Shown one piece after another: positions 8,908-50,027 of a stretch of DNA of 64,000 bases. Numbering within the stretch: position 1 is the stretch's first letter; every line of letters begins with the position of its first letter. The notes below the pieces were generated by a model, which was not told the origin of the DNA, did not search any database, and saw only the letters and a program-made list of their open reading frames with translations. Origin of the DNA: a candidate division WOR-3 bacterium (GTDB taxonomy: Bacteria > Hydrothermota > Hydrothermia > LBFQ01); contig JBDRWW010000003.1 in assembly GCA_039802605.1 (NCBI GenBank), positions 32,001 through 96,000 of the forward strand, written 5' to 3'. The position numbers were made by a program, and so were the translations under genes.

Positions 8908-10516
8908 GGTTTTTGCGCTATTGAGCCTTTTGGTTTTGGGGCTTAAAGCCCAAACATGGGCGGGATTAAGCACATACGGGGGTACAAATTACGATCAGAT
9001 GTGGGCCATAGATTTCATGGGAGGTACAACACCCGTTCTTGGAATGTTTACTATATCCTATTCAATAAGTGGGAGCGATGAGGACTATGTTTTGATAACA
9101 CCATCTTGGCAAAAGGTTATAGGGAATACGGGTGGAAGGGATGACTGGATGTATAAGACCCAATGGCTAAACAGTGGAAATATAGTTGTAGGTGGTGCTT
9201 GGTGCAACGATGGGGGCGCTGGTCCTGGTAGTTGTTATGCACCGTTATACGGTTTTGTTGTGGGTTTAAACTCTTCGGGTAATTTTCTGTGGGGTAGGCA
9301 TTTGGATTTTTCAAACCTATGGGGATGCTCTGGGAATACGAATAGACAAACGAGGGTAATGCATGTATCACCGACAAGCGATGGCGGATTTTTGGCGGCG
9401 GGGTTTTTGACATATAATATTGATGATGGTTGGGGAAGCTGTATTACCAACGATGCAGACGGTTTCATAGCCAAGTTTAACTCTACCGCTAATCTTCAAT
9501 GGATAAGGATAGTGGATTGGGCTGCGGATTGGAATATAGCCACTACGGCTTTTGAAACGACGGATGGCAATTATGTCCTTTTGGCTCCGAGTTGGTATGA
9601 GGTAGGGGTTTTAAAGTTTGACCCAAGTGGTAGCCTTATCTGGCAAAGGAGGTATCCGAGGAGTATAGCGACTTCAACGATAACATTTTCTTGGGGGAAG
9701 CTCACAAGCGATGGTGGTTTCATTTTGGCCACCCATATAGCGGGTTCTGGTGATGATGCCCTGTTTATGAAGTTTAATTCATCGGGCAATTTTGTATGCG
9801 CCGCAGTTATATCAACATCTGGTAACGATTACGGTATAGATGTGGTTGAAGGGCCTAACTGGTATTGGATGACTGGGAGTTTGGGTGTAAGCGGCAACGA
9901 TCTGTTTATAGCGAAGATAAGGAAAACCGATTGCAATGTTATAGAGGTTAGGAGATTACTTTCGGGTGCGGATGAACAGGGGAGGAGTATGGATATAAGG
10001 CCCGTTATGGGTATCCCTTATGTTGCGGGATATACAAACAACACCGCTTGGTCTGTCGGAAATTATGACGGTTTGGTTGCGGCGGATTCCGGAGGATTGG
10101 ATACATGCTATTGGAGAAATTATTCTCCAACAATAACCTACCCGACATTTAGCGCATCCGGTTCGTTTACCGTATATTATCCAAGCATGAGCACCAGCGG
10201 TTATACCGTAAGCGTTCAGAACATTTCGGTTGCACGCAGGATAAACTGCGGATTGGATCCTTTGGGTGAAGGGGATGAAGAATTGGGAATGGATGAAAGG
10301 TTTGTTAGTTGCGAGATAAACTATACGGTGATAGGGAATAACCTGAGGTTAAGGGTGAAGTCCGAAAGGGGTGTGGATGTGAAAATATACACGCCAAACG
10401 GCGTTAAGGTTTTCGATGAGGGGTTTGTAAAGTCAGGCGTGTATAACATACCTTTGAGAAGGGGTGTATATTTCTTGAAGGCCGGAGGTAAAACCGAGAA
10501 GATTGTTATCCTGTAA
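8891..10516 (+). CDS. Secreted beta-propeller-like protein with T9SS type A-like C-terminal sorting domain
   Basis: Classical signal peptide ending LKA-Q; repeated TSDGGF/KFDxSGxLxW blades; C-terminus KIYTPNG...GVYFLKAGGKTEKIVIL. Confidence 0.7.
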   Translation: MRYAFKVFALLSLLVLGLKAQTWAGLSTYGGTNYDQMWAIDFMGGTTPVLGMFTISYSISGSDEDYVLITPSWQKVIGNTGGRDDWMYKTQWLNSGNIVVGGAWCNDGGAGPGSCYAPLYGFVVGLNSSGNFLWGRHLDFSNLWGCSGNTNRQTRVMHVSPTSDGGFLAAGFLTYNIDDGWGSCITNDADGFIAKFNSTANLQWIRIVDWAADWNIATTAFETTDGNYVLLAPSWYEVGVLKFDPSGSLIWQRRYPRSIATSTITFSWGKLTSDGGFILATHIAGSGDDALFMKFNSSGNFVCAAVISTSGNDYGIDVVEGPNWYWMTGSLGVSGNDLFIAKIRKTDCNVIEVRRLLSGADEQGRSMDIRPVMGIPYVAGYTNNTAWSVGNYDGLVAADSGGLDTCYWRNYSPTITYPTFSASGSFTVYYPSMSTSGYTVSVQNISVARRINCGLDPLGEGDEELGMDERFVSCEINYTVIGNNLRLRVKSERGVDVKIYTPNGVKVFDEGFVKSGVYNIPLRRGVYFLKAGGKTEKIVIL

Positions 10517-31195: not shown

Positions 31196-32050
31196 CTAAT
31201 GCGGTTTAACCATATACACCCTCCCGGTATTATCCGCACCAACCACCGCAAACATTAAGCCGTTTTCAGACCAAACCCCATCTAACACCCAGTGGAAAAA
31301 TGGTTCCGATTCGAGTAACTTATTCCTTTTAAAATCGTAATAATAAACCCTTTTCTTTGTACCCCCGTATATCACCCCCGTTTCAAGGGGGGATACGGCT
31401 ACGAAAAGGGAACCGAAGGTGTTTTCCTTAATCTCTCCCAAAGTTTTCCATGTTTTGGTATCATAGATTTTCAACCCCTCATCGCCTATTACAAACAACC
31501 TTCCGTTTTTAGTCCAAATTATATCCCTTACCTCCGACTGAAACCTATCAAGTATCCTATAAGGTTTCATAATCGTGGTACTCCAAATATCAACCCTGCC
31601 ATCACAAGAACCCGTTGCGAAGAATTCCCCATCCGGTGATATATCGCCCGAAAGCAAGGGGCAACCCGTTTCCGTATTGGATTCCATTGCTGTATCTTGG
31701 AAAAGGGTTATTAAGGCAACCCCTTTGTTCTGAACGGCCAATAACCTCTTTTCATCGGGAAACCATACAATCTTGTTCGTAAATGATGTGTTTTTAAACC
31801 TATAAATTTCGTTCCCGGAAAAGGTATAAATTATTACCCTATCCCCGGCAACCGCTATATACCTCCCCGAGGGGGAAATCCTAACATCCGAGATTTTACT
31901 CATACCGGCCCTAAATTTTAATTTTAAACTCGGCCCGGTATCCGACCAGATATACACATAACCCCTATTATCCGCCGTAACTATTCCCATACTTCCCCAA
32001 TCAACCGCCACTACCGGAAACATATGTGTGAATGTCCAAAGGATTTCCAT
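31196..32050 (-). CDS. WD40-repeat protein
   Basis: Repeated SPSG/SPDG...ATGSCDG.V.IW blades. Confidence 0.75.
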   Translation of the reverse strand: MEILWTFTHMFPVVAVDWGSMGIVTADNRGYVYIWSDTGPSLKLKFRAGMSKISDVRISPSGRYIAVAGDRVIIYTFSGNEIYRFKNTSFTNKIVWFPDEKRLLAVQNKGVALITLFQDTAMESNTETGCPLLSGDISPDGEFFATGSCDGRVDIWSTTIMKPYRILDRFQSEVRDIIWTKNGRLFVIGDEGLKIYDTKTWKTLGEIKENTFGSLFVAVSPLETGVIYGGTKKRVYYYDFKRNKLLESEPFFHWVLDGVWSENGLMFAVVGADNTGRVYMVKPH

Positions 32051-33571
32051 TTACGCCCTCTTAAATATCGCCATAAGGGAACTCAGGGATACAAAAACAC
32101 CCAATATAAACAACGCTATCGCAAAAATCAAGGCCACCATATTTAGTTTCCCAAACTGATATACAAGTGCCCACAGGGTTATTATACTCATAAAAATTGC
32201 CGGAATTAAGGAAACAATATAGTTCCTTTTCGTTTTAAACAACCAAGCGGTTATTACGAATAAGGAAAGGGCGGCCAACAGTTGATTCGCCGCACCAAAA
32301 ACCGTCCATAGGTTATCCGCTTGTCCGCCCAATAACAGGGCTAGGGAGCATATTACGACAATGGCGGAGGAAATATAGATATTTTTCAGTCCAAAGAACT
32401 CCGTTGTTATATACCTGGCGATGCGTGTGGCCGTATCAAGGGTTGTTAGTATAAAAGCGTTTAGGACGAGTATGGCAAAATATCCCCCATAACTCCCGAG
32501 AAAAGGTGTAATATTCCCCACACCCTTACCGAATGTACCTATGGGGTTTGAAGGGTCTAAACCTCCGGATAACGACCCAACCGCTGCTATTACCAACACC
32601 GCCAAAAAACCCTCCAACAACATAGCGCCATAAGATATTTTCTTTGAATCCCTTTCCTTTGGCAATTGCTTTGCCGATGTCCCGGAGGATATTAGGGAAT
32701 GAAAGCCGGATATAGCCCCGCAGGCCACCGTCACGAACAGAAAGGGTACAAGAGGTATATCCGAAGACTTTACTGGGGGTATGTTAAAATGTTTTCCCGA
32801 AATCAATGCCCCGGCGAACATTACAAGAATTCCCCCTACAAGCAGATATGAGGATATGTAATCCCTCGGTTGCAATAGGTATTGCACGGGAATCACCGAT
32901 GCCATAAAGGAATATATCAATAGGATTAAAAGCCAGAAATGATAAGATGCTTTTATGGGAAACATTTCCCCCAAGGGGATAAGGATTATCAACCCCAGTA
33001 TACCCAAGATCGTGGAAATCAGGAGGTTTATATTGAGTTTATAGGTTAAAAAAATTAAGGCCACGGGTATAAGACCGAGGGAGGGTATTACTATATGCGG
33101 GTCTCCCACATAGGATTTCGCCGCAAAGTGCGCAAACACGGCCACTATCAAAACTAAGGCAAACCATACAAAGGCGGAAAACAAAACCCTTGCATATTCC
33201 GATACATAAATCCTTGATACCTCGGATATACTTTTCCCATCATTCCTAAGGGAAACCATCATGGAACCGAAATCGTGAACACCCCCCATAAATACGCTTC
33301 CAAAAAGAACCCAAAGAAATGCCGGAAGCCAACCCCAATATATTAAAGCCAGTGTGGGACCGACTATTGGCCCCGCCCCTGCTATTGAAGCAAAGTGATG
33401 ACCAAAGAGTACCAACCAGCTCCTTGCGGGTACATAATCCCTGCCATCGTAAAGCCTTTCGGCAGGAGTTGGGTTATCCCCAACCTGAAACACACGACTC
33501 AAAAAACCCCCGTATAATACATACCCCATTATGAGGAATAAGACACAAAACATTACAAAAACCACAAGCAT
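32051..33571 (-). CDS. cstA: Carbon starvation protein A family transporter
   Basis: DGRDYVP, GHHFASIAGAGPIVGP, ACGAISGFHS, TTLDTATR; start moved to ATG 33571. Confidence 0.92.
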   Translation of the reverse strand: MLVVFVMFCVLFLIMGYVLYGGFLSRVFQVGDNPTPAERLYDGRDYVPARSWLVLFGHHFASIAGAGPIVGPTLALIYWGWLPAFLWVLFGSVFMGGVHDFGSMMVSLRNDGKSISEVSRIYVSEYARVLFSAFVWFALVLIVAVFAHFAAKSYVGDPHIVIPSLGLIPVALIFLTYKLNINLLISTILGILGLIILIPLGEMFPIKASYHFWLLILLIYSFMASVIPVQYLLQPRDYISSYLLVGGILVMFAGALISGKHFNIPPVKSSDIPLVPFLFVTVACGAISGFHSLISSGTSAKQLPKERDSKKISYGAMLLEGFLAVLVIAAVGSLSGGLDPSNPIGTFGKGVGNITPFLGSYGGYFAILVLNAFILTTLDTATRIARYITTEFFGLKNIYISSAIVVICSLALLLGGQADNLWTVFGAANQLLAALSLFVITAWLFKTKRNYIVSLIPAIFMSIITLWALVYQFGKLNMVALIFAIALFILGVFVSLSSLMAIFKRA

Positions 33572-33638: not shown

Positions 33639-34148
33639 ATGCGATTTATACCCATTTTAATTATTGGGTTAATCGTGGGGTGCTCATCCCTACCTCCAAA
33701 GGGCGGAGCCCCGGATGTTTTGGAAGTTAGGTTTAAATCACCTAAGGATTCCATAGTTAGTAAGTTCAAAGCCGTTGTGTATAACAACAAATACGCCGTT
33801 GCAACATATTCCGTTGACGAAGGTATTATTGAAACCGATTGGAGGGAACTAAACAAAAGTTCCTTTTCTTGCTGCTTTGCTTATATGTTTGAAGGGGTAA
33901 GGCAGTCTTGGATAAAGGTTATAGCATATGTTGGTCAGGTCCCGGGCGATACATTAAACTACATTAAACTACAAGGTTTGTTAAAGATTATAGGGACAAG
34001 GCCTTGGGATAACGAAGTTCAGATAAGGCCCATAAAGAAGGGGACTCCTTATTACAAGGAATTGGAGAAATTGATAACGCAGTTGGAGGAACAGTTGGGG
34101 GAGAAGGGTAATTACGAGGCCATGAAAAGGGAGGTATTGCTAAAATGA
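33639..34148 (+). CDS. Lipoprotein, BamC/NlpB-like helix-grip fold possible
   Basis: MRFIPILIIGLIVGC lipobox after a TATAAT box; GIIETDW motif. Confidence 0.55.
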   Translation: MRFIPILIIGLIVGCSSLPPKGGAPDVLEVRFKSPKDSIVSKFKAVVYNNKYAVATYSVDEGIIETDWRELNKSSFSCCFAYMFEGVRQSWIKVIAYVGQVPGDTLNYIKLQGLLKIIGTRPWDNEVQIRPIKKGTPYYKELEKLITQLEEQLGEKGNYEAMKREVLLK

Positions 34149-34594
34149 TGAAAATGATAAGGTATTTTTTACCCTTTGCGGTATTGATTGTATTGCCGAC
34201 TTTGGGCTTTGCCAATTGCCCAGACCCTCCAAAAGGAATTCCTAATAATCCCCTTGGTGAGGGTTTTGCCTTTGCCTATCCAAGCGTTGTTGCCCTTGAT
34301 GCCAATGGTAATACCAGACCTGCTGTATTCTACAAAGTACACCAGTCCGACATAGTTGAAATTTATGACCCCTTTGGCGTACTCGTTAAAAGGTTTGAAC
34401 AAGGTGATAGAAATGAGGTGAAAGACGGAACCTATGCCAACTGTGCTTATCTTTGGTTTGGAGAAAACGGTGCGGGGAAACCCGTTTCTCCTGGCATTTA
34501 CCTTGCGGTTTTGAGGTTTCAAGCCGGAGGGGCTCCAAGCGGCACATCGCGCAGGCAGTATGTCTTGGTTAAGGTTCCCCCAAGGGTAAGGTAA
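34145..34594 (+). CDS. Exported stand-alone FlgD-Ig / T9SS-CTD-like domain protein
   Basis: Signal peptide; IYDPFGVLVKRF...WFGENGAGKPVSPGIYLAVL. Confidence 0.65.
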   Translation: MMKMIRYFLPFAVLIVLPTLGFANCPDPPKGIPNNPLGEGFAFAYPSVVALDANGNTRPAVFYKVHQSDIVEIYDPFGVLVKRFEQGDRNEVKDGTYANCAYLWFGENGAGKPVSPGIYLAVLRFQAGGAPSGTSRRQYVLVKVPPRVR

Positions 34595-34598
34595 GGCC

Positions 34599-35870
34599 AT
34601 GGTGATACTTCTACTATCGCAGATGGGTACGGGTGGAATACCCGGTTATATGTTTGCATACGCAATAGGTGCAAGGCCTTATGGTTTTGGTAGGGCTTTC
34701 ACGGGTTTGGCAGACGATGCGGAAGCTGTTTATTTCAACCCCGGAGCCTTGGCATTTTTGCAAAGGGTAAATGCGACGGCCGGATATTTCCAATTGCCCA
34801 TATCCGATTTTACATACTACTACGCCGCATTTACATTCCCAACGGCAACATTCGGCAGTTTTGGCATAACCGTAATGCAATTACAGAATCCCACAAGGGA
34901 TCAGGGGGCAATATTTTTTGATTCCGTTCAGTGTACGAGATTTGAAGGGTATGTATGTACGGATTCAACTTTCGCTTATGCCGATTTCCCGAAATCCGGT
35001 AACAATGATAGGACGCCCTTTAACGCGGGCCTAATAGCATATTCAAAATCCTTTTCAAGGTACATATCCGTAGGCGCTGCCCTTGAATTGGTATACCATA
35101 GGGTTTATAACTCATCGCCTTCAAGTGCGGGGATTATGGTGGGTATGATGTTTATCCCGAATCAATATTTCTCCTTAGGAATAGTGGGTCAGCACTTTAT
35201 ACCACCCAAAGAGAGTTATTTGATAACATCCCAAACATACCCTCAGGTTTGGAGGTTTGGGATAGGTTTGAGGCCCTTTAACTGGATAAACCTCGTAGTT
35301 GATGGTGCTTATTCAACCTTTTATAACGGATTCAAGTTTTACGGGGGTGCCGAGGCGAGACTCCTCTCCTTCCTTTATGTTAGAGGGGGTATAAACTACG
35401 AGGAGGTTTCCGGTGGTGGGAGTTTTGAATTCACAATAAGGGATATAATTTTCAGGCTTGACGGTGCTTATACATTTAACTATGCTTCAAACGGCGTGTA
35501 TAAGGATTATATGCAGTTTTCCGGTGTTATAAAGTTTGGCGGTTATAGGGTTTGGGCGGATGCCGATCCAAAACTCATTTCCCCTACGGAAGGGGAAGCA
35601 AACATAGCGTTTGTATATCTCCACACCTTCCCAAGGCAGGATGTTGAGAGTTGGGAGTTTATTATAAAGAAACAAACGGGTGAAGTGGTTAGAACCTTTT
35701 ACGGTGAGGGTGAGCCTCCCGTAAGGATTGAATGGGATGGTAGGGATGACGCCGGAAGAATAGTACCCCCCGGGAACTATAACTATCATTATAGGGTAAT
35801 AGATTCGGGGGGTGAAGTTTATGAACGCGCGGGTTATTTGGTTACGGTAAAAAGGGTGGAGGTATGGTAA
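34599..35870 (+). CDS. PorV/UPF0164-like outer-membrane barrel with C-terminal FlgD-Ig domain
   Basis: GARPYGFGRAFTGLADDAEAVYFNPGAL signature; beta-strand pattern; C-terminal VVRTF...WDGRDDAGRIVPPGNY. Confidence 0.75.
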   Translation: MVILLLSQMGTGGIPGYMFAYAIGARPYGFGRAFTGLADDAEAVYFNPGALAFLQRVNATAGYFQLPISDFTYYYAAFTFPTATFGSFGITVMQLQNPTRDQGAIFFDSVQCTRFEGYVCTDSTFAYADFPKSGNNDRTPFNAGLIAYSKSFSRYISVGAALELVYHRVYNSSPSSAGIMVGMMFIPNQYFSLGIVGQHFIPPKESYLITSQTYPQVWRFGIGLRPFNWINLVVDGAYSTFYNGFKFYGGAEARLLSFLYVRGGINYEEVSGGGSFEFTIRDIIFRLDGAYTFNYASNGVYKDYMQFSGVIKFGGYRVWADADPKLISPTEGEANIAFVYLHTFPRQDVESWEFIIKKQTGEVVRTFYGEGEPPVRIEWDGRDDAGRIVPPGNYNYHYRVIDSGGEVYERAGYLVTVKRVEVW

Positions 35871-35871
35871 G

Positions 35872-38424
35872 ATGCTAACGGCAAGTTTAATGCTTTTTGC
35901 AATGTCCTATAATGATTTTTATAGGGCGTATAAGGACGCGGAGGAACTTTTCAGGAAGGGGGATTACTCAAAATCCGAAAAGATATACCGTAAGATCCTC
36001 AGGGATTCCTACAAGTATGGGTTTGGAAACGAAACGAGGTACAGAATAGCCGAGGCGCTGTTTAATCAAGGTAATTTTGACGGCGCTATAAAAGAATGGG
36101 ACAAACTGGCTAAGGAGAAAGATGTAAAGGGTACATACTTGGAACAGGAAATAGCCTATGCCGTTGCCTTGGCCTATGCTATCAAGGGGGATGTCAATAT
36201 TGCCAAACAAAAGTTGTTAGATTTGCAAAATTACCCATACTACAAAAACTCCGATAGGACAAAGTTCCTTGACGGGGTGATATCTTATAGGGAGGGTAAG
36301 TTCTTAGAGGCTTCCGAAAAATTGGCCAAGGCTCAAACCGTTCCAGAGGCCAAGTTTTATTATGCGAGGACATTGGCTATACTCGGAAAACCCTTGGATG
36401 CCGTGGCCATATATAAAGAACTCCTTGAAGATTATTCCGGAACCCCGCAGGAGGCTTTAATAAACTACGGAATGGTAGAGGCAAACTTCATATACGGTGA
36501 TTACAAGGCCACTTCCGAGATGGCAGACGCTTTTACAAAAAGGTTCCACGGGCATAAGCTATCCGACTATGTACAGTATTACTGGGGTATATCCCTTTAC
36601 CGTATGGGTATGGGTGAGGGTGGAAAGAAGGATAGCGTATTACTACCCAAAGCCTTGGAAAAGCTTACATTGCTAACCAAGAAGAGAAACTTTGAATTGG
36701 CGGGTTTGGCCGCGTATTTTGTGGGTAATATTCAACTTGCGCTAAAACAGTACGATGATGCCCTTAACTATTATCAAACCGCCCGTTCAAGGGCTAACGA
36801 TCAGGTGGTATCGTTTATATCAATCCTCAGAATGGCCGAGACTTATTATTACAAAGGGGATACAAATAACGCGTATTTATTGGCCAACCAGTTGGGTTCA
36901 TTCCCCTTATCCCATGAGGAGCAGGGTGTAAGCGAATATTTAACCGGCGCCATCCATTACCTTTTGAGAAAATATCCGGCTTCTATGGAGCAGTTCCAGT
37001 TCCTCATAGAAAACTATCAGAGGTCTTATTTCAGGAGGCCGGCTATGGCCATGATGATTTTCGCCCTTATAAACCAGCACGAATTTGAGGCCGCAATGGC
37101 AAGGGGTAACCTTTACAACGAAGAGGTTTCACAGGACACAACCTTTACGATATGGAACTCTTGGTTCGTTCATGCATTGGCGGAGGCGCATTATTATAAC
37201 AAGGATTATGCGACGGCAGAAAAGTTGTACAACCTAAACCTCAAATATGGGCTTTCAAAGGATTTAATAATACTTTCAAGGTTAGGCTTGGGTTGGGTTT
37301 ATATCCATCAGGACCGCTTGGACGATGCCCTGGCCCAGTTAAACGCCATAGCGGGACAATCACCCGATACATCCGTTGTTATGGCGACATTTTTGGGGAT
37401 AGGGGTGGCGGAGTTTAACAAAGGGAAATATGTAGATGCTTTTGGAAGGTTTTACGCGGTTTATCAATTTGCCCCCGAGAGGGAGGAAATAGCATCCGAG
37501 GCCCTTTATTACTCGGGTTATGCGGCAAAGGCTGCTAAGTCTTATGGTGATGCGGTTAGGAATTGGGACTTAACCATGCAGAAATATCCGAGACAACCCA
37601 AAGCCTGTGATGCCGCTTTCAGTTCCGGCGAATTGTATAAAATGGCCGGACAGTTTGACGATGCCATATCAAGGTTTAGGTGGTTTTTGGAGCATTGCCC
37701 CGACCATCCAAAGGTTCCTAGGGCTCAATTCTGGATAGCCGAGTCCTATGAGGGTAAGAAGGATTGGGAATCCGCAAGGCAGGAGTACGAAACTTTCTTA
37801 AACAAATTCCCGGAAAATGAACTCGCCCCCAAGGCTAAAACCGGCCTTGAAAGGGTTTATTTCAGGCTAACAGAACAAGACCCCAACTATCTTGAAAAGT
37901 TCTTGGAAAGGTTTCCAACAAGCAATATAGCGGCCCTTGCACTTTATAAGGCCGCGGCGGATGCAATGAACGCCGGGGATGAAGTAAAAGCCGCCGATCT
38001 CTTTTTCCGCCTTGGAAACGAGTATCCAAAGAGCGATAAGGCCGAGGAAGCATTATACTACGCTGGAACCCTCTATTTGAAGAACAAGAAGTTTAGAGAG
38101 GCTATTGAGGCTTTCAAAAAGTATAAAGACTTCTTCCCAGATGGGCAACACGCGGAGGATGTGTTCTACTATTCCTCAACCGCTCATTTGTCCTTACAGG
38201 AATACGACGCCGCTATTAAGGCTGTACAGGAATTTATAAAGAGGTTTCCAAATAGTCAAAAAGTGCCCGATGCATATCGTATAATGGGGGTGGCTTATAA
38301 TGAAATGGGGGATGTTAGGAACGCGGCGAGGGCGTTTAGGCAGGCTGCTGACCTTTATAGGCAGCAGGGTAGGGCCACAGAGGCCCAACAAATGGAAGAC
38401 ATTATTAAACAACTTCCGCAATAA
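35872..38424 (+). CDS. Large periplasmic TPR protein (BamD/CpoB-like repeats at C-terminus)
   Basis: Continuous TPR motifs, repeated F/Y-P-x-S/H...A patterns. Confidence 0.85.
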   Translation: MLTASLMLFAMSYNDFYRAYKDAEELFRKGDYSKSEKIYRKILRDSYKYGFGNETRYRIAEALFNQGNFDGAIKEWDKLAKEKDVKGTYLEQEIAYAVALAYAIKGDVNIAKQKLLDLQNYPYYKNSDRTKFLDGVISYREGKFLEASEKLAKAQTVPEAKFYYARTLAILGKPLDAVAIYKELLEDYSGTPQEALINYGMVEANFIYGDYKATSEMADAFTKRFHGHKLSDYVQYYWGISLYRMGMGEGGKKDSVLLPKALEKLTLLTKKRNFELAGLAAYFVGNIQLALKQYDDALNYYQTARSRANDQVVSFISILRMAETYYYKGDTNNAYLLANQLGSFPLSHEEQGVSEYLTGAIHYLLRKYPASMEQFQFLIENYQRSYFRRPAMAMMIFALINQHEFEAAMARGNLYNEEVSQDTTFTIWNSWFVHALAEAHYYNKDYATAEKLYNLNLKYGLSKDLIILSRLGLGWVYIHQDRLDDALAQLNAIAGQSPDTSVVMATFLGIGVAEFNKGKYVDAFGRFYAVYQFAPEREEIASEALYYSGYAAKAAKSYGDAVRNWDLTMQKYPRQPKACDAAFSSGELYKMAGQFDDAISRFRWFLEHCPDHPKVPRAQFWIAESYEGKKDWESARQEYETFLNKFPENELAPKAKTGLERVYFRLTEQDPNYLEKFLERFPTSNIAALALYKAAADAMNAGDEVKAADLFFRLGNEYPKSDKAEEALYYAGTLYLKNKKFREAIEAFKKYKDFFPDGQHAEDVFYYSSTAHLSLQEYDAAIKAVQEFIKRFPNSQKVPDAYRIMGVAYNEMGDVRNAARAFRQAADLYRQQGRATEAQQMEDIIKQLPQ

Positions 38425-38441
38425 AAAGGAGGTAGGGAAAT

Positions 38442-39146
38442 ATGGAAATGGTTTTTGCAATTTTGCCGGCCTTGCAGGAAGGCTTTAATATACTCAACAT
38501 ATTCCGTATATATGCAGTGGTGGACGGCGTAGTCACCTTTATTGGGTTCTTTGATAACTTAACGATGTTTGTTCTACTCATCCTGTTCATCGCAGCCTTA
38601 ATACTCGTAGGCGAGAGGTTATTCTATGTCTTGCGCCGCAAGAACTTCAACGCCAATAAGGTCCTGTCGGATGTTCAGGCATATCTTGAAAACGGGGATG
38701 TAGAAGGCGCAATAGCTTACCTCAAAAGAACGGATCACCCATTACACAACACCCTTAGGGCTGGTCTTGAAAACATACATTTACCCCTTGACCAGATGTA
38801 CGATATGATGGATTCGGTGTTATCATTTGAAAGGTCAAAGCTGCTCAAATTCACCTCGGGTTTATCCTCTATAATTGCCGTCGCTCCCCTTGCCGGTCTA
38901 TTCGGAACAGTGGATGGGTTGATAGACGCATTCCACCAGATAGCGGTTACCGGGACAGGTGGGCCGGAGGTTGTGGGTAAAGGTATATCCACGGCATTGG
39001 TCACTACTTGGTGGGGATTGATAATAGCGATGATGAGCATACCCGTTTATAACTATGTAACAAACATTGTAGATCAAATAACCACGAGGATAGACAACGC
39101 GGCTAGGAGGCTTTTGATAATAGTTAGCCAATTACAAAAGACTTAA
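38442..39146 (+). CDS. MotA/TolQ/ExbB proton channel
   Basis: APLAGLFGTVDGLIDAF, GISTALVTTWWGL; SD AAGGAGGT. Confidence 0.92.
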   Translation: MEMVFAILPALQEGFNILNIFRIYAVVDGVVTFIGFFDNLTMFVLLILFIAALILVGERLFYVLRRKNFNANKVLSDVQAYLENGDVEGAIAYLKRTDHPLHNTLRAGLENIHLPLDQMYDMMDSVLSFERSKLLKFTSGLSSIIAVAPLAGLFGTVDGLIDAFHQIAVTGTGGPEVVGKGISTALVTTWWGLIIAMMSIPVYNYVTNIVDQITTRIDNAARRLLIIVSQLQKT

Positions 39147-39147
39147 T

Positions 39148-39579
39148 ATGGCCAGAAAAAAGGAATTTTCTAAACCCAAGGGGCCGAGTGTAAACCTCGG
39201 CCCCTTCTCCGATGTGACGACCTCTTTGGTCATAATGTTTATGCTAACAATACCCTTCCTCGTGGAATCCGGTATTTACATAAGCAGATCCTTGCCGGCC
39301 AACATAAGAATGCCTACCCCCCAACAACCTCAAAAGAGCGATATAAAAGTTAATATACACTTAAAAGCCGACGGAACAATACTTTTGAACGAGGAACCCG
39401 TTGACCCATCTTTATTGCCCGACCTTATACCCAAGCTCTTGGCAAGGAGTGTGAAGAAACAGGCTTTACTCTCGGCAGACGAGGAGGTTATATATGAGAA
39501 TGTTATCCAAATAATAGACTTATTAAAACAAAAGGGCGCCTCCGATGTGTTAATAATGAAGAGGGCAAAGAGGAGGTAA
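39148..39579 (+). CDS. ExbD/TolR family protein 1
   Basis: NLGPFSDV TM with conserved Asp; ADEEVIY..V..IID. Confidence 0.88.
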   Translation: MARKKEFSKPKGPSVNLGPFSDVTTSLVIMFMLTIPFLVESGIYISRSLPANIRMPTPQQPQKSDIKVNIHLKADGTILLNEEPVDPSLLPDLIPKLLARSVKKQALLSADEEVIYENVIQIIDLLKQKGASDVLIMKRAKRR

Positions 39580-39582
39580 ATT

Positions 39583-40035
39583 ATGGCGAAAAAATTAGAA
39601 AAGAAGGAAGCCCCCGATGTAGGCCAGTACCTCTTCCCAATGGCCGGGGTAATGATATTGGTTTTGGCAACAATGATAGCAAACGCTCAGTCGCTATTTC
39701 AGGGTACCAGTATAAAGGTTGATATTCCCAAGGCAAATGTCATAGAGGTTGATTTGGAGCAGAGCATACCCATATCCATAACTAAGGATGGGAAGGTATA
39801 TGTTCAAGATAAGGAGATGCCCGATTTAAACGCTTTAAGGGATAGGGTAAAGGAATTGCAGGAAAAGTACGCCCTTGATGCCGGAGACCCAGAACTCAAA
39901 GGGCAACAGCTAACCGTTATAAGGGCCGACAAGGAAATAAACTGGGGAAGGGTTTTAGAGGTCATAGACGAGACGAAAAGGGCGGGTTGTAAAAGAACCG
40001 CCCTTGCGGTTATAAAGAGGAGGGGGGGAGGTTGA
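39583..40035 (+). CDS. ExbD/TolR family protein 2 (TM Asp absent)
   Basis: TM YLFPMAGV; VDIPKA; IRADKEINWGRVLEVID..KRAG. Confidence 0.85.
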   Translation: MAKKLEKKEAPDVGQYLFPMAGVMILVLATMIANAQSLFQGTSIKVDIPKANVIEVDLEQSIPISITKDGKVYVQDKEMPDLNALRDRVKELQEKYALDAGDPELKGQQLTVIRADKEINWGRVLEVIDETKRAGCKRTALAVIKRRGGG

Positions 40036-40060
40036 AGGAAAAATTTTTCACCTTTATAAT
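40032..40060 (+). promoter_or_regulatory. Internal sigma70-type promoter TTGAAG-17-TATAAT upstream of tonB-like gene
   Basis: Hexamers at 40032-40037 and 40055-40060; SD AGGAGGTG at 40070. Confidence 0.6.
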
Positions 40061-40081
40061 ATACAGAACAGGAGGTGGGAC

Positions 40082-41161
40082 ATGGCACAAGTAAGAACTA
40101 TTAAATTACCTGAGGAGAGGGAGGACCGCGCGCAGAAGAGGTTGGCGGTCTTCTTTCTATGGTCCTTGGTGGTGTTGGCGGGCTTGGCGTGGGTTATGAG
40201 GGGTCAAATAGCGGCCGCCCTTGAAGAGGCAAGACTCAGAGAAATCCAATTATTGGAAGAAAAGTTAGCCAAAAAGAAGAATGTACCCCCCAAGTTGATG
40301 AAGCAATTGGAAAAGAAAAAGGAAGAGGCCAAGAAAGAGGCAGAAAAAAAGGATGAAAAGAAACCCGGTGAACCGAAGAAAATAGATTTGCAGGCAAAAC
40401 TATCACAAACCCTGAACCCCACAATAAAACTCGGTGGTCCAAAATTAAATGTAGATATTCCGCAAAACATAAAACTTCAGATAGCGAGTACCCAAATGCT
40501 CCCCGAACAGGTTCAGGTTAAAAACATAGACTTGAACGCGGCATTGGAAACTTCCGCAAAAATAGATATACAATCCCTTGACCAATCTTTGAGCGCCGAA
40601 GCGGCGGATGTTGTGGTGGCAGTTCCGACAAAGGGCGTTAGTACGGCCGATATATTGGCACAAGAGGCCGTTCCCGCCGTATCCCTCGGTGGGGCTGGAT
40701 TTGAAGGCTCCCTTGGTGGAGGTTTGGGCCTTGGTGGTGAAGGGGGTGGAGGAGGTATAAGCTTGAGCAGTGGTGGAGGTGGCGGATTGGCCGCCGCGGC
40801 ACCATCCGTTGATGTGGCCGTACCAAAACCCGCGGCGAAGGAGATAGCCGCCCCTGCCGAACCGGTGCAGGTGAAAGGAGGTGGTGCTATTGAGATAGAA
40901 GGATGCATTCAGGGTAAGGTTGTCCGCAAGGTTAAGCCTGAATACCCTCTAAGGGCTCGTAGGGAAGGTTGGCAGGGAGTTGTGGTTGTTGAGGTAGTAT
41001 TATCTTCAAACGGTACAATCAAAAATCTTGAACTCGTCAAATCAAGCGGTTATGACATCCTTGATAGGGCTGCGATAAGCGCCATACAAGGTTGGCAGTT
41101 TTCAAGCAATGTCCCCGAGGGATGTTCCGGTAAGATAACCATGAGGTTCGTTTTGGAGTAA
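40082..41161 (+). CDS. Energy transducer TonB family protein
   Basis: N-terminal TM, K/E- and G-rich linker, C-terminal PEYPLRARREGWQG...SSGYDILDRAA...WQF. Confidence 0.88.
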   Translation: MAQVRTIKLPEEREDRAQKRLAVFFLWSLVVLAGLAWVMRGQIAAALEEARLREIQLLEEKLAKKKNVPPKLMKQLEKKKEEAKKEAEKKDEKKPGEPKKIDLQAKLSQTLNPTIKLGGPKLNVDIPQNIKLQIASTQMLPEQVQVKNIDLNAALETSAKIDIQSLDQSLSAEAADVVVAVPTKGVSTADILAQEAVPAVSLGGAGFEGSLGGGLGLGGEGGGGGISLSSGGGGGLAAAAPSVDVAVPKPAAKEIAAPAEPVQVKGGGAIEIEGCIQGKVVRKVKPEYPLRARREGWQGVVVVEVVLSSNGTIKNLELVKSSGYDILDRAAISAIQGWQFSSNVPEGCSGKITMRFVLE

Positions 41162-41165
41162 GGGC

Positions 41166-42053
41166 ATGAAAAGGTATTTGATACTGTTGGCGTTTTTTGG
41201 ATTGCCCGTGCTTGGTTATGCTCAGGATCAAGGCGGTGAAATCTCCGAAGAAGAGACCGTTGTCGGTACGGCGGAATACAAGATAGATGATGCGGTGAAA
41301 CCCATTGTTGACCTCCAATTAAGGCCATTTGAACCGGTTGATAGCTTTATACTTTTAAAAGAAAAGGGTTTGGAAAAGAGGTTACCCGCGGGAATAGATA
41401 AGGAATTATCGGAAGTTGTGAAACTAAACAACCCATTCCTCAGAAGGCCGGTATATCCCGTTATGATAGTGGATAAAATAGTTATAAAACCTGGGAAATT
41501 GCCCAAGCCCGATAATTGGAAGATAGTTGTTTACAACTCGGCTGGAATACCCGTAAAAACCTTTGAAGGAAGGGGAGGGGTGCCCAACGAAATAGTATGG
41601 GACGGTATATCCGATAAGGGAGTACCCGCAATAAAACCCGGTGAGAGATTTACATATAGGATATATTTGGAGAGAAAGAGCGGGGCCAAGAGGAGGGAGG
41701 TTAGGGAAATACCCGAAATCGTAGGATTTGCCATATCCGATCCCAAAGGTGATAACATGATTTATCTAAACACCGATTATGTATTCCAACCCGGAAGGGC
41801 AAACTTGCAACCGGATGGTGAAGAGAGGATTGTGGAAATGTTAAACTTCTTAAAGGCAAAGTATAAGGGTAACGGTCCGGTGGAGGTTTATGTTTATGCC
41901 ACCAACAACTTTCTCTACGAGGATAGGGCAAAGGTTTTAAGAGAACTGATACTCAAAAACGCACCAATAGATCCGGAAAAGTTAAAGATAAATCAGGGAT
42001 ATTTTCAATCCGGAGCGAAATACGAAAGAATAGAATTGAAGTTTAGGGATTAA
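41166..42053 (+). CDS. Exported protein with FlgD-Ig-like domain and degenerate OmpA/MotB-like C-terminal domain
   Basis: Signal peptide ending GYA-Q; WKIVVYNSAGIPVKTF..IVWDG; VFQPGRANLQPDG...DRAKV. Confidence 0.6.
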   Translation: MKRYLILLAFFGLPVLGYAQDQGGEISEEETVVGTAEYKIDDAVKPIVDLQLRPFEPVDSFILLKEKGLEKRLPAGIDKELSEVVKLNNPFLRRPVYPVMIVDKIVIKPGKLPKPDNWKIVVYNSAGIPVKTFEGRGGVPNEIVWDGISDKGVPAIKPGERFTYRIYLERKSGAKRREVREIPEIVGFAISDPKGDNMIYLNTDYVFQPGRANLQPDGEERIVEMLNFLKAKYKGNGPVEVYVYATNNFLYEDRAKVLRELILKNAPIDPEKLKINQGYFQSGAKYERIELKFRD

Positions 42054-42054
42054 A

Positions 42055-43527
42055 ATGGATAACAAGGTGGAGGTCCATCTCAAAGAACTTTTAACTTTTG
42101 ATGATGTTCTTTTGCTTCCCAAGTATAGCGAGGTTTTGCCTTCGGAGGTTATCGTTAAAAGTAGATTTAGCAGGAATATATCTTTGAATATTCCCATAGT
42201 TTCATCTGCTATGGATACCGTCACCGAGTATAGAATGGCGGTTGCCATGGCCTTAAACGGTGGAATAGGTGTTATTCACAGGAACCTTCCGCCTGAAAAA
42301 CAGGCCGAGGAGGTTAAAAAGGTTAAAAGGTTTAGGGCTTGGATGGTTATAGACCCTTATACCCTTACGGAAAAATCCACCATAGGCGATGCAAAAAATC
42401 TTATGCATACCCATAACATATCCGGAATACCCATAATTGATAATAACGGCAAGCTGAAAGGCATTATAACCAGAAGGGATATTTATTATGCGGAAAACGA
42501 TTGGGAACCGGTAATAAGGTACATGACCCCAAGGGAAAAGTTAATAGTGGCATATTATCCCATAACTTTGGAGGAGGCCAAGGATATACTTAGGAAACAT
42601 AGAATAGAAAAATTGCCCGTTATAAACGAAAGGGATGAATTGGTTGGCCTTATAACGGCAAAAGATGTTTTCAACCAAGAGGATGATGGGGATGCAAATG
42701 TGGATAATTTGGGTAGGTTGAGGGTTGCGGCTGCCATTGGGCCTTCTAAGGATTTTGAAAGGAGGGCGGAACTCTTATACGAGGCGGGGGTTGATGCGTT
42801 CGTCGTGGATACCGCCCACGGTCATAGCAAAAGGGTTGGTTATGCGGTTGAATATTTAAAGAAAAACTATCCCAATGTTGATGTTGTGGCCGGAAATGTG
42901 GCCACATACGATGGCGCTATGTACCTTATAGATAAGGGTGCGGATGGTATTAAGGTAGGTGTGGGTCCCGGATCCATATGCACCACCCGTGTTATTGCCG
43001 GTGTTGGCGTACCTCAGCTGAGCGCAATAATGGAATGTTATAAGGCCTGTTCTTACAACGATGTTCCACTAATAGCCGATGGGGGGATAAGGTACTCCGG
43101 TGATATTGTTAAGGCGTTGGCGGCCGGTGCGGATGCCGTTATGTTGGGCAATTTGTTGGCGGGTACGGATGAAAGTCCCGGTGAGGATATTTTTTACGAG
43201 GGTAGGAGGTACAAGACTTACAGGGGTATGGGTTCCCTCGGGGCTATGTTGGAAGGTGGATCTTCGCGGTACGGTTGGGATGGGAGTTTGAAATTTGTTC
43301 CCGAGGGTGTGGAAGGTATGGTACCTTACAGGGGAAGTGTTAAAGATGTTTTATTTCAACTGGTTGGGGGTTTGAAGGCGGGTATGGGATACCTAGGAGC
43401 ATCAAATATAAAGGAATTGAGGGAAAAGGCGGAGTTTATAAAAATAACCAACGCGGGTATAAAAGAAAGCCATCCACACGATGTATTTATAATAAAGGAA
43501 GCTCCAAACTATAACAAAGGGGGTTAA
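42055..43527 (+). CDS. guaB: IMP dehydrogenase
   Basis: [11 protein letters not shown] pair, [17 protein letters not shown]. Confidence 0.97.
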
Positions 43528-43528
43528 T

Positions 43529-44512
43529 ATGTCGGTGGAATACGCTTATGCAAGGATTAGGGGGAGAAGGGCAAAACTGCTAACACCTATTGAAATGGAA
43601 ACGCTAATAAGGGAAGACCTTGAAAATATGGAAAATGCCTTAAAGGACACCAAATACGGGAAATACCTACCCAAGGTTGGGGAGAAGGGGGGAATATCCA
43701 AACTTTTAAATGCGGTTAATTTGGCCTTTATAGATGAGCTTGAAAAGGTTAAAAAAATACTCTCCGATGATGGGAACCTTTTATACTCCTTGGAAACATA
43801 TCTGGCAAGATGGGATTTGCAGAATTTTATCACCATAGTTAGGGGAAAGTTTTATTCCCATCCAGAAGAAGAAATTTTAAGGGCTTTGTTGCCCATTGGG
43901 ATTTTAGACGAAATTAGGCTAAGAGACCTTATGAAAGAAGAGGATGCATACTCCGTGGCGGAGAGGGTCAAGGTAATCGTAAAGGGCTTACCCTTTGAAA
44001 TTACAAGGGAATCCCTTAAATACCTAAAAGCCGGAGAACTTGCAAAATTTGAATACGGAGTCTATACCTCGTTTTATCACAACATTCTAAGCCGGGATGT
44101 ACATCCATCCGTTAAGGATTTTTATAAGTTTTCCATAGATGCGAAAAATTTATCTTTGGCCTTCATATCCCTCCAATACGGTGAGAGACCCAGTCTGTGG
44201 ATTGAGGGTGGATATTTGTCGGGCTCGTTAAAAATAAAGGTTTTACAGTGCGAAACCGTTGAAGATTTACAAAGGGTTATATCGGAACACATTGGGTTAA
44301 AAGGGGTTGCTTTGGAAAACATTGATACTATTTTTGAAAGGAAGTTTTTCGGAAGTGTTTTAAGGGATTTTAGGAGGGATCCTGTTAGTTTTTACTCGGT
44401 TTTACAATATCTCAACGAGTTGGAAAGGGAAGTTATAACTTTGAGAACGATTATTTACGCCAAATCGTTTGGTTTGAGTCCCGAACAAATAAAGGAGGTG
44501 TTGTATGTCTGA
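43529..44512 (+). CDS. V/A-type ATP synthase subunit C (isolated)
   Basis: YAYARIRG...LL, RWDLQN...RGK, EREV..LR.I. Confidence 0.8.
   Translation: MSVEYAYARIRGRRAKLLTPIEMETLIREDLENMENALKDTKYGKYLPKVGEKGGISKLLNAVNLAFIDELEKVKKILSDDGNLLYSLETYLARWDLQNFITIVRGKFYSHPEEEILRALLPIGILDEIRLRDLMKEEDAYSVAERVKVIVKGLPFEITRESLKYLKAGELAKFEYGVYTSFYHNILSRDVHPSVKDFYKFSIDAKNLSLAFISLQYGERPSLWIEGGYLSGSLKIKVLQCETVEDLQRVISEHIGLKGVALENIDTIFERKFFGSVLRDFRRDPVSFYSVLQYLNELEREVITLRTIIYAKSFGLSPEQIKEVLYV

Positions 44513-48365: not shown

Positions 48366-50027
<1,662 letters not shown>

Follow-up and report, generated by a model that had tools for sequence, protein, structure and literature searches.

We find that nine adjacent genes in the genome of a candidate division WOR-3 bacterium encode a conserved Ton/Tol-type motor system that is separate from both the Ton and the Tol-Pal systems and stands as a third beside them. 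The cluster lies at positions 33639-42053 of a 64,000-nucleotide stretch of DNA (the window; contig C3, 32001-96000) from a genome of 1.65 Mb that is 90% complete in 23 contigs. We suggest that its products may form a proton-driven device acting on a surface protein that has a C-terminal domain (CTD) of the kind known from type IX secretion systems (T9SS) and is held by its own PorV-like barrel; this is the reading we prefer, tentatively, at somewhat less than an even chance. What the analysis shows directly is which domains and folds the products have, the order of the genes and its conservation, their coexistence with Tol-Pal and Ton, and their presence in RNA libraries.

All nine open reading frames (ORFs), here called g1 to g9, are on the + strand and are spaced by -4 to +46 nt, in agreement with the original prediction, which was made from the DNA sequence alone and called them co-oriented and tightly packed. 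The first, g1 (33639-34148, with an alternative start at 33531), encodes a small lipoprotein of 169 aa, and g2 (34145-34594) a secreted protein of 149 aa that is an almost bare T9SS-CTD-like, FlgD-type immunoglobulin-like (Ig) domain. These are followed by genes for an outer-membrane barrel of the PorV/FadL family (g3, 34599-35870), an 850-aa tetratricopeptide repeat (TPR) protein (g4, 35872-38424), an ExbB/TolQ stator subunit (g5, 38442-39146), two ExbD/TolR paralogues (g6, 39148-39579, and g7, 39583-40035), a TonB-like arm (g8, 40082-41161) and a protein with a FlgD-type Ig and a degenerate OmpA-like domain (g9, 41166-42053). Neither Pfam nor NCBIfam gives a family match for g1, g2 or g9.

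The order of these genes recurs in many genomes from several phyla, which is much more than expected by chance. Searching reference genomes with the alignment of the barrel yielded 80 loci, and the order barrel-TPR-ExbB-ExbD-ExbD-TonB-g9 was kept in 12 of them (L011, L012, L017, L018, L024-L030 and L056), whose labels include Stahlbacteria, Calditrichaceae, Caldithrix, KSB1/Deferribacteres and Spirochaetia. In another eight loci, whose labels are Firestonebacteria or FCPU426, only the CTD protein and the barrel are present, and the last 60 match other PorV-family barrels in part. Among 121 genomes sampled from the phylum to which the window belongs, 73 were matched by a profile of g9 (59 of the 96 high-quality ones), about 64 of these matches being near full length by the table count, and a second match was usual ~6 kb from g9, at the Ig domain of the barrel in an ORF of 400-500 aa. 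When regions from 18 genomes were compared, 16 were colinear and two were split into a CTD-protein/barrel(/TPR) part and a motor/TonB/g9 part, with both halves retained. Near-full-length g9 was also present in all eight genomes labelled Firestonebacteria or FCPU426 (124-146 bits), at least six of which have a 416-453-aa ORF with an Ig match 6-7 kb away on the same contig. Synteny across WOR-3 and its relatives, which the original prediction had proposed as a check, is strong.

The genome has exactly two MotA_ExbB loci, of which the cluster is one. The other, on contig C7, has the order ExbB-ExbD-ExbD-TonB and then the gene for a receptor of 1063 aa, in which CarboxypepD_reg, Plug and TonB_dep_Rec domains are recognized; no TonB-dependent receptor is found by Pfam among the nine genes of the cluster. 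Full-length TolB (334-399 bits, model positions ~5-418) is encoded in five of ten cluster-bearing genomes, and in the four regions fetched TolQ-, TolR- and TolA-sized genes precede TolB and lipoproteins adjoin. G068 and G145, two genomes that carry the cluster, each have three MotA_ExbB loci. Because it coexists with TolQRA-TolB operons and with a receptor-linked Ton locus, the cluster is a separate, third motor system. Family matches and this coexistence uphold the original prediction in its claim of a distinct Ton/Tol-type system without TonB-dependent receptor, TolB or Pal. We found no TolB in this genome, where the best match to TIGR02800 reaches 63 bits (cut-off 343) and covers repeats only, and none in the closest relative, G040; since both genomes lack TolB, the cluster might also serve envelope tasks here.

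The cluster resembles the Ton system in that ExbB, ExbD and an arm ending in TonB_C are encoded together, and in a motif of g9 that is similar to a TonB box. It differs from the Ton system in that the outer-membrane partner has a PorV/FadL fold rather than being a Plug/TonB_dep_Rec receptor, in that the Asp is kept in one ExbD, and in the addition of the 850-aa TPR protein and the Ig/OmpA-like protein. The second locus of this genome extends further (L107, C7:54031-65478): after the Ton genes and the receptor come genes for a protein of 769 aa, a barrel of the PorV family (100 bits) and a protein of 937 aa that ends in Por_Secre_tail. The order Ton, receptor, ~1000-aa protein and PorV-like barrel is also seen in G050, G068 and G145.

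The stator subunits are recognized at the level of Pfam families, in which g5 scores 93.8 bits on PF01618, and g6 and g7 score 65.4 and 61.8 bits on PF02472. In NCBIfam, g5 scores 61.9 bits on TolQ and 50.4 bits on ExbB, both below the equivalog cut-offs; indeed, the ExbB, ExbD and TonB equivalog models all stay below their cut-offs in the cluster, while the Pfam cut-offs (PF01618, PF02472 and PF03544) are passed. The Pfam matches confirm the original identification of an 850-aa TPR protein, an ExbB/TolQ, two ExbD/TolR and a TonB. When we aligned the ExbD pairs of 30 clusters, 28 had exactly one transmembrane Asp per pair, the residue being replaced by Gly, Ala, Cys, Asn or Ser in the other paralogue. 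In the window, g6 keeps the Asp and g7 has Gly. Both ExbD proteins keep it in the two other clusters (L026 and L121), as do both ExbD proteins of the housekeeping Ton locus. The paralogue that keeps the Asp differs between lineages, and in three regions (L122-L124) the Asp-less ExbD is apparently fused to a second ExbB-like protein.

The arm, g8, is 359 aa long; a membrane helix at its N-terminus is joined by a linker of ~200 aa, rich in Lys/Glu and Gly, to a TonB_C domain (PF03544, 73.1 bits, residues 285-356). It scores 20.6 bits on tolA_full, for which the cut-off is 59.45, compared to 71.8-73.1 bits on TonB_C, and it does not qualify as having TolA domain III; its Pfam matches are limited to TonB_C and TonB_2, with no FHA domain. 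In most g8 orthologues the membrane helix carries an S-x-x-x-H pattern, as it does in TonB/TolA; the His is absent from the protein in the window and from that of L012 (alignment A3; window 40082-40200).

The AlphaFold2 (AF2) model of g3, built from 22 sequences with a pLDDT (predicted local distance difference test) score of 78.3, has the 14-strand FadL/PorV fold with an N-terminal hatch. Its top Protein Data Bank (PDB) matches by Foldseek are PorV chains in SprA complexes, 8gl6_F (E = 3e-8) and 6h3i_F, with template modelling (TM) scores of 0.58-0.63 normalised to the target (0.63 for 6h3i_F), and E. coli FadL and its relatives rank among and just below both PorV chains. On PorV_fam (NF033709), g3 aligns with model positions 9-321 of 326, at 29.8 bits and under the cut-off of 90. 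Residues 346-396 match FlgD_ig (28.1 bits, cut-off 27; Pfam), giving the barrel a C-terminal domain that would be periplasmic. The N-terminal Y-x-N-P motif (NPG/NPA), part of the hatch region, is invariant among the barrel orthologues. The FlgD_ig match and the PorV/FadL-fold model agree with the original description of g3 as a PorV-like barrel fused to a FlgD-type Ig domain. The g3 protein of this lineage (also L011, L012 and L110) has only ~8 hydrophobic residues ahead of the conserved mature N-terminus, and in relatives the signal peptide is of the usual kind and 20-40 aa long; in this lineage g3 is thus unusual in its start codon or its export signal.

The neighbouring g2 aligns over its whole mature length with the C-terminal domain of the proteins that relatives encode upstream of the barrel (alignment A4), and a profile of this domain finds g2 with an E-value of 1.9e-36, so that g2 is, as first described, a stand-alone FlgD/CTD-like Ig protein. 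The upstream proteins of relatives match FlgD_ig above the cut-off and, in two cases, Por_Secre_tail, the T9SS sorting domain, below the cut-off (Pfam); Big_1/Invasin Ig repeats precede the terminal domain. Within the window's own phylum they are 119-610 aa long, and in loci with the labels Calditrichaceae/Caldithrix, KSB1 and Spirochaetia their length is 1821-2147 aa. By these alignments, the conserved element is a CTD-like Ig domain whose gene adjoins that of a PorV-fold barrel, with the passenger ahead of it being optional. The physical tie to a PorV-fold barrel and a CTD-like protein is supported by gene adjacency, the g3 model and alignment A4. A further claim, that two CTD-tagged proteins occur in the window, stands in one half only, and there below threshold: we found one TIGR04183 match at ~10337-10510 (22.3 bits, cut-off 23) and no second.

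Two further proteins would lie between the arm and the barrel. The 850-aa g4 matches many TPR families in Pfam, has BamD-like stretches, and scores 182.5 bits over six stretches on tol_pal_ybgF (TIGR02795, the CpoB/YbgF model; NCBIfam), a score that arises from repeated TPR units. Its orthologues have N-termini with clear signal peptides and are periplasmic in the relatives. The g9 protein has a signal peptide, an acidic strand motif, a disordered linker and two folded domains. In its AF2 model (11 orthologues, mean pLDDT 71, mostly >83 for residues 100-295) residues 10-97 are disordered, ~105-182 form an Ig sandwich and ~187-294 an OmpA-like domain; its Foldseek matches include the OmpA-like domains of FopA1 (6u83, E = 1.1e-5), PomB, MotB and OmpA, and FlgD structures too. 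The model and its matches thus bear out the description of g9 as a FlgD-Ig plus OmpA-like protein. The g9 and g3 Ig domains are mutual best matches in the genome by profile search.

The OmpA-like part of g9 is degenerate. Among the 11 orthologues (alignment A2) its invariant or nearly invariant positions are only F207, L214 and E224, and there is no invariant Asp or Arg of the kind needed for canonical peptidoglycan binding. The signal peptide has no Cys and hence no lipobox, no OmpA match is given by Pfam or NCBIfam, and g9 is not a Pal protein by these features. Immediately behind the signal peptide lies a candidate coupling motif, an acidic stretch of alternating hydrophobic residues common to 24 orthologues from several phyla. 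It is of the type (E/D)(E/D)-V/I-x-V/I-K-G/E ... I-x-E/D-x-K-P and resembles a TonB box or the TolA-binding strand of TolB. A complex prediction for the TonB_C part of g8 (A3, residues 262-359) with the N-terminal part of g9 (A2, residues 22-110) returned a score of 0.00 and a mark of 0.32, and carries no weight either way. In G165-G172, labelled Firestonebacteria or FCPU426, the g9-type Ig domain is expanded to 19-29 matches per genome; these genomes have many 600-900-aa ORFs with several Ig copies, some of which match the OmpA-like part, and the barrel + Ig protein is multi-copy.

The cluster is represented in RNA libraries. Contigs from two metatranscriptome libraries, from two studies (sediment and hot spring as labelled), match g1-g9 at 99% identity or more. 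The contigs of one run (X1) cover 27 of 30 bins over ~34100-43600, and single pieces bridge g1-g2-g3, g5-g6 and g8-g9-guaB; no RNA-library contigs were found on the divergent cstA flank. This coverage suggests, without proving it, that the genes are transcribed. Two raw-read RNA runs (X8 and X9) yielded 0 and 2 reads, too few for comparison. Scans for promoters (23 versus 18.1±4.7 in shuffled sequence) and terminators (13 versus 12.9±3.9) were not above expectation.

We propose the following mechanism, by which a proton-driven device would act on a CTD-type surface protein. The nine genes would form one operon for a specialised Ton/Tol-type transducer of the proton-motive force. In the inner membrane, a stator of ExbB and an asymmetric ExbD/ExbD' pair, with one protonatable Asp, would drive the long TonB-like arm g8, and the arm would meet not a TonB-dependent receptor but the PorV/FadL-family barrel g3 with its periplasmic FlgD-type Ig domain. 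The barrel would pair with the T9SS-CTD-like g2 and hold it at the surface; elsewhere the same domain ends proteins of up to ~2100 aa. The TPR scaffold g4 and the soluble g9 may couple the arm to the periplasmic Ig domain of the barrel, such that proton flow would produce a pulling force, on the barrel or else on g9, by which the CTD-type surface protein would be loaded, moved, exposed or released. The system would then be an accessory to type IX secretion rather than its core motor, and mechanically a cousin of Agl-Glt and Tol-Pal. The TPR protein g4 is, by analogy, an alternative partner for the TonB_C domain of g8; in a published model, as given in the cited part of PMC11761067, the TonB-like domain of GltG sits on the TPR protein GltD.

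Several observations weigh against this proposal. The score of g3 is far under the PorV_fam cut-off (29.8 versus 90 bits), and by Foldseek E-value the barrel is equally near FadL and PorV. The putative cargo is just 149 aa here and 119-215 aa in several relatives; since the partner is conserved as an Ig domain and not as an adhesin, a structural role fits it as well as a cargo role does. SprA is present where the cluster was not found, which makes the tie to T9SS optional. The OmpA-like domain of g9 could, from its modelled fold, still bind peptidoglycan, which would favour tethering. The RNA-library contigs prove neither transcription nor a single transcript, and we infer the contacts, topology and function of the products from domain content, adjacency and analogy. 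We weighed four other explanations, which in order of decreasing weight are a Tol-Pal-like tether, a general T9SS motor, energised uptake by way of a channel of the FadL type, and a machine for gliding.

In the first, which we consider unlikely but the most serious of the four, the cluster would be an envelope tether or constriction device of the Tol-Pal type, in which the motor pulls on the barrel g3, in the place of Pal, through g9 and g4, the Ig proteins are structural, and the outer membrane is kept attached and coordinated with wall synthesis. Such a device is consistent with the 182.5 bits of g4 on the CpoB/YbgF model, with g5-g7 scoring slightly better on the models of TolQ/TolR than on those of ExbB/ExbD, with the OmpA-like fold of g9 and with a partner, g2, as small as a bare Ig domain. 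The lack of TolB in this genome and in G040, together with only two MotA_ExbB loci in the former, means that the cluster could replace Tol-Pal here. In general terms the likeness to Tol-Pal consists of a homologous stator, CpoB-like repeats in g4 and an OmpA-fold gene after the arm; unlike Tol-Pal, the cluster has neither TolB nor a Pal lipoprotein, and its arm ends in TonB_C. However, a canonical TolQRA-TolB operon is present in five of the ten cluster-bearing genomes, which rules out replacement of Tol-Pal as a general explanation. In addition, g9 lacks a lipobox, a Pfam OmpA match and, across 11 orthologues, an invariant Asp or Arg, and the tether leaves unexplained the 550-2147-aa Ig-repeat proteins with a CTD-like terminus that are encoded upstream of the barrel in many lineages.

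The second explanation is that the cluster is the power train of T9SS in phyla without GldLM/PorLM, where it would remove PorV-cargo complexes from SprA. The setting is suggestive: the genome encodes SprA (1829 aa), a PorU-like protein (312 bits, cut-off 420), two good PorV-family barrels elsewhere (157 and 100 bits) and 46 Por_Secre_tail matches, 28 of them above the cut-off (one only with its neighbours in frame). SprA_N was found in nine of ten cluster-bearing genomes, and five cluster-bearing genomes have 28-148 CTD matches each. We detected no GldM in G000-G004, and neither GldL nor GldK above the cut-off in any of seven genomes, with models that are built on Bacteroidota and from which very divergent forms could escape. 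A first GldM control on five Bacteroidota-labelled metagenome-assembled genomes gave no match, and the control was then widened to 31 Bacteroidota-side genomes, of which seven had GldM; GldL and GldK were each found in 3/3, the genes lying side by side. Two weak GldL matches (C7:14921 and C15:21527) are coiled-coil, low-complexity ORFs and not GldL. Of the genes that the original prediction proposed to look for, SprA and a PorU-like protein are thus present, and GldK, GldL and GldM were not detected. A complete canonical T9SS together with an unconserved gene order, which was named as contrary to that prediction, is not what we observe: SprA is encoded elsewhere, GldK/L/M are undetected and the gene order is strongly conserved.

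SprA_N is found in 113 of the 121 genomes of the phylum, including families without a detected g9 or barrel Ig domain: f3 (6 of 6), f14 (14 of 14), f12 (3 of 4), f28 (4 of 5) and f9 (2 of 3). Only one MotA_ExbB locus is present in each of the f3 and f14 genomes, and in G050 it is of the housekeeping, receptor-linked kind. Because SprA occurs in whole families where the cluster was not found, the cluster is probably not the general T9SS motor, and the original idea of a secretion machine or T9SS-like exporter as such is not supported. The best structural match of the barrel, SprA-bound PorV, and the strong controls for the Gld models favour a motor role; better PorV matches elsewhere in the genome (157 and 100 bits), and the chance that the Bacteroidota-built GldL/M/K models miss very distant forms, count against it, and we regard it as improbable. 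In genomes labelled Firestonebacteria or FCPU426, SprA_N matches are weak and occur in 3/8, inside ORFs of 2129-2223 aa.

The combination of SprA, a PorU-like protein, PorV and tens to more than 100 CTD cargos, with GldK/L/M undetected, is seen in this genome and in G001-G004, G040-G044, G050 and G051. A broader proposal, which we think rather unlikely, is that Ton-type 5:2 motors energise T9SS in those phyla that have SprA, a PorU-like protein, PorV and 30-150 CTD cargos and in which GldKLMN are undetected. The cluster would then be a Ton-powered extraction or anchoring unit for one barrel and its CTD protein, and the housekeeping Ton locus, which a PorV-family barrel adjoins here and in G050, G068 and G145, would serve the general pathway. 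The likeness to T9SS lies in the PorV-fold barrel, the CTD-like Ig partner and a host with SprA, a PorU-like protein and many CTD cargos. The arrangement of g2 and g3 also recalls sprB-sprF, in which the gene for a CTD protein adjoins that for its own barrel. The differences are that g3 falls below the PorV_fam cut-off and has an extra periplasmic Ig domain, that the motor is ExbBD/TonB and not GldLM, that GldK/L/M are undetected, and that SprA is widespread without the cluster.

Third, the cluster could be a TonB-dependent uptake system with a FadL-type channel, in which a substrate, hydrophobic or derived from a polymer, would be caught by the surface Ig protein and the arm would open the hatch. 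FadL, TodX and TbuX do rank next to PorV in the fold search, the NPG/NPA of the N-terminal hatch is invariant, and the variable upstream proteins could be binders. However, FadL channels are not known to need energy input, the barrel N-terminus has no TonB-box-like strand (the box-like motif is on g9), and the giant TPR protein and the Ig/OmpA-like protein have no counterpart in uptake systems; we doubt this explanation strongly.

The remaining explanation, a surface-motility machine like Agl-Glt of Myxococcus in which the motor moves an adhesin-loaded platform in the outer membrane, seems to us a long shot: the parts encoded together (one TolQ-like and two TolR-like proteins, a TonB-like arm and a giant TPR protein) equal the Agl-Glt core complex of AglRQS, GltD/E/C and GltG as listed in the cited part of PMC3169522, and some lineages have long Ig-repeat surface proteins upstream, but an FHA domain is missing from g8, the barrel belongs to the PorV type and not to the porin-like GltA/B/H type, the adhesin would be only 149 aa in this genome, and the core complex alone is insufficient for motility according to the same part of that paper. 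GltG is described in the cited parts of PMC3169522 and PMC11761067 as TonB-like with cytoplasmic FHA domains, and a PorV-type barrel and an Ig/OmpA-like protein stand here in the place of GltA/B/H/K. No Glt models are among the NCBIfam matches of g4, and no Glt sequences were compared. The function of the Agl-Glt core complex outside myxobacteria is stated to be unknown in the cited part of PMC3169522.

A few features of the locus stand apart from these questions. The lipoprotein g1 has orthologues only in close relatives (L011, L012, L110 and L112) and no relative in Pfam, NCBIfam or the protein atlas; its lipobox (LIVGC) supports the lipoprotein half of the original description, and those collections give no support for "BamC-like". 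The cluster is flanked by a divergent cstA upstream and by IMP dehydrogenase and V-type ATPase genes downstream (Pfam). Two genes upstream, on the - strand at 31196-32050 and outside the operon, is a 284-aa WD40 beta-propeller protein that by score is unrelated to TolB. The window also has a complete bacterial 16S rRNA gene at 48425-49976 (1422 bits), and its presence there accounts for a G+C peak of 0.59.

For ExbB/TolQ-type 5:2 motors there are good descriptions of three roles: the import of nutrients (Ton), envelope integrity and division (Tol-Pal), and gliding in myxobacteria (Agl-Glt). The relatives found in protein searches are unnamed or carry only the labels "hypothetical protein" or "FlgD Ig-like", and full-text searches yielded no description of an ExbBD-TonB operon with a PorV-like barrel, although subscription journals or closed supplements may hold one. 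There is a real chance that the cluster, which belongs to the Ton/Tol/Agl class of 5:2-motor envelope systems, has a new function. This multi-phylum operon would add a further use of the 5:2 motor, one with a PorV-fold barrel and a T9SS-CTD-like protein at its outer end and with one protonatable ExbD. It also bears on the energy source of T9SS in uncultured lineages related to the Fibrobacteres-Chlorobi-Bacteroidetes (FCB) group, which have SprA and large cargo sets and no recognisable GldLM/PorLM. If the broader proposal on Ton-type motors, which we think rather unlikely, is true, ExbBD-TonB rather than GldLM would be an alternative, or older, power train for type IX secretion.

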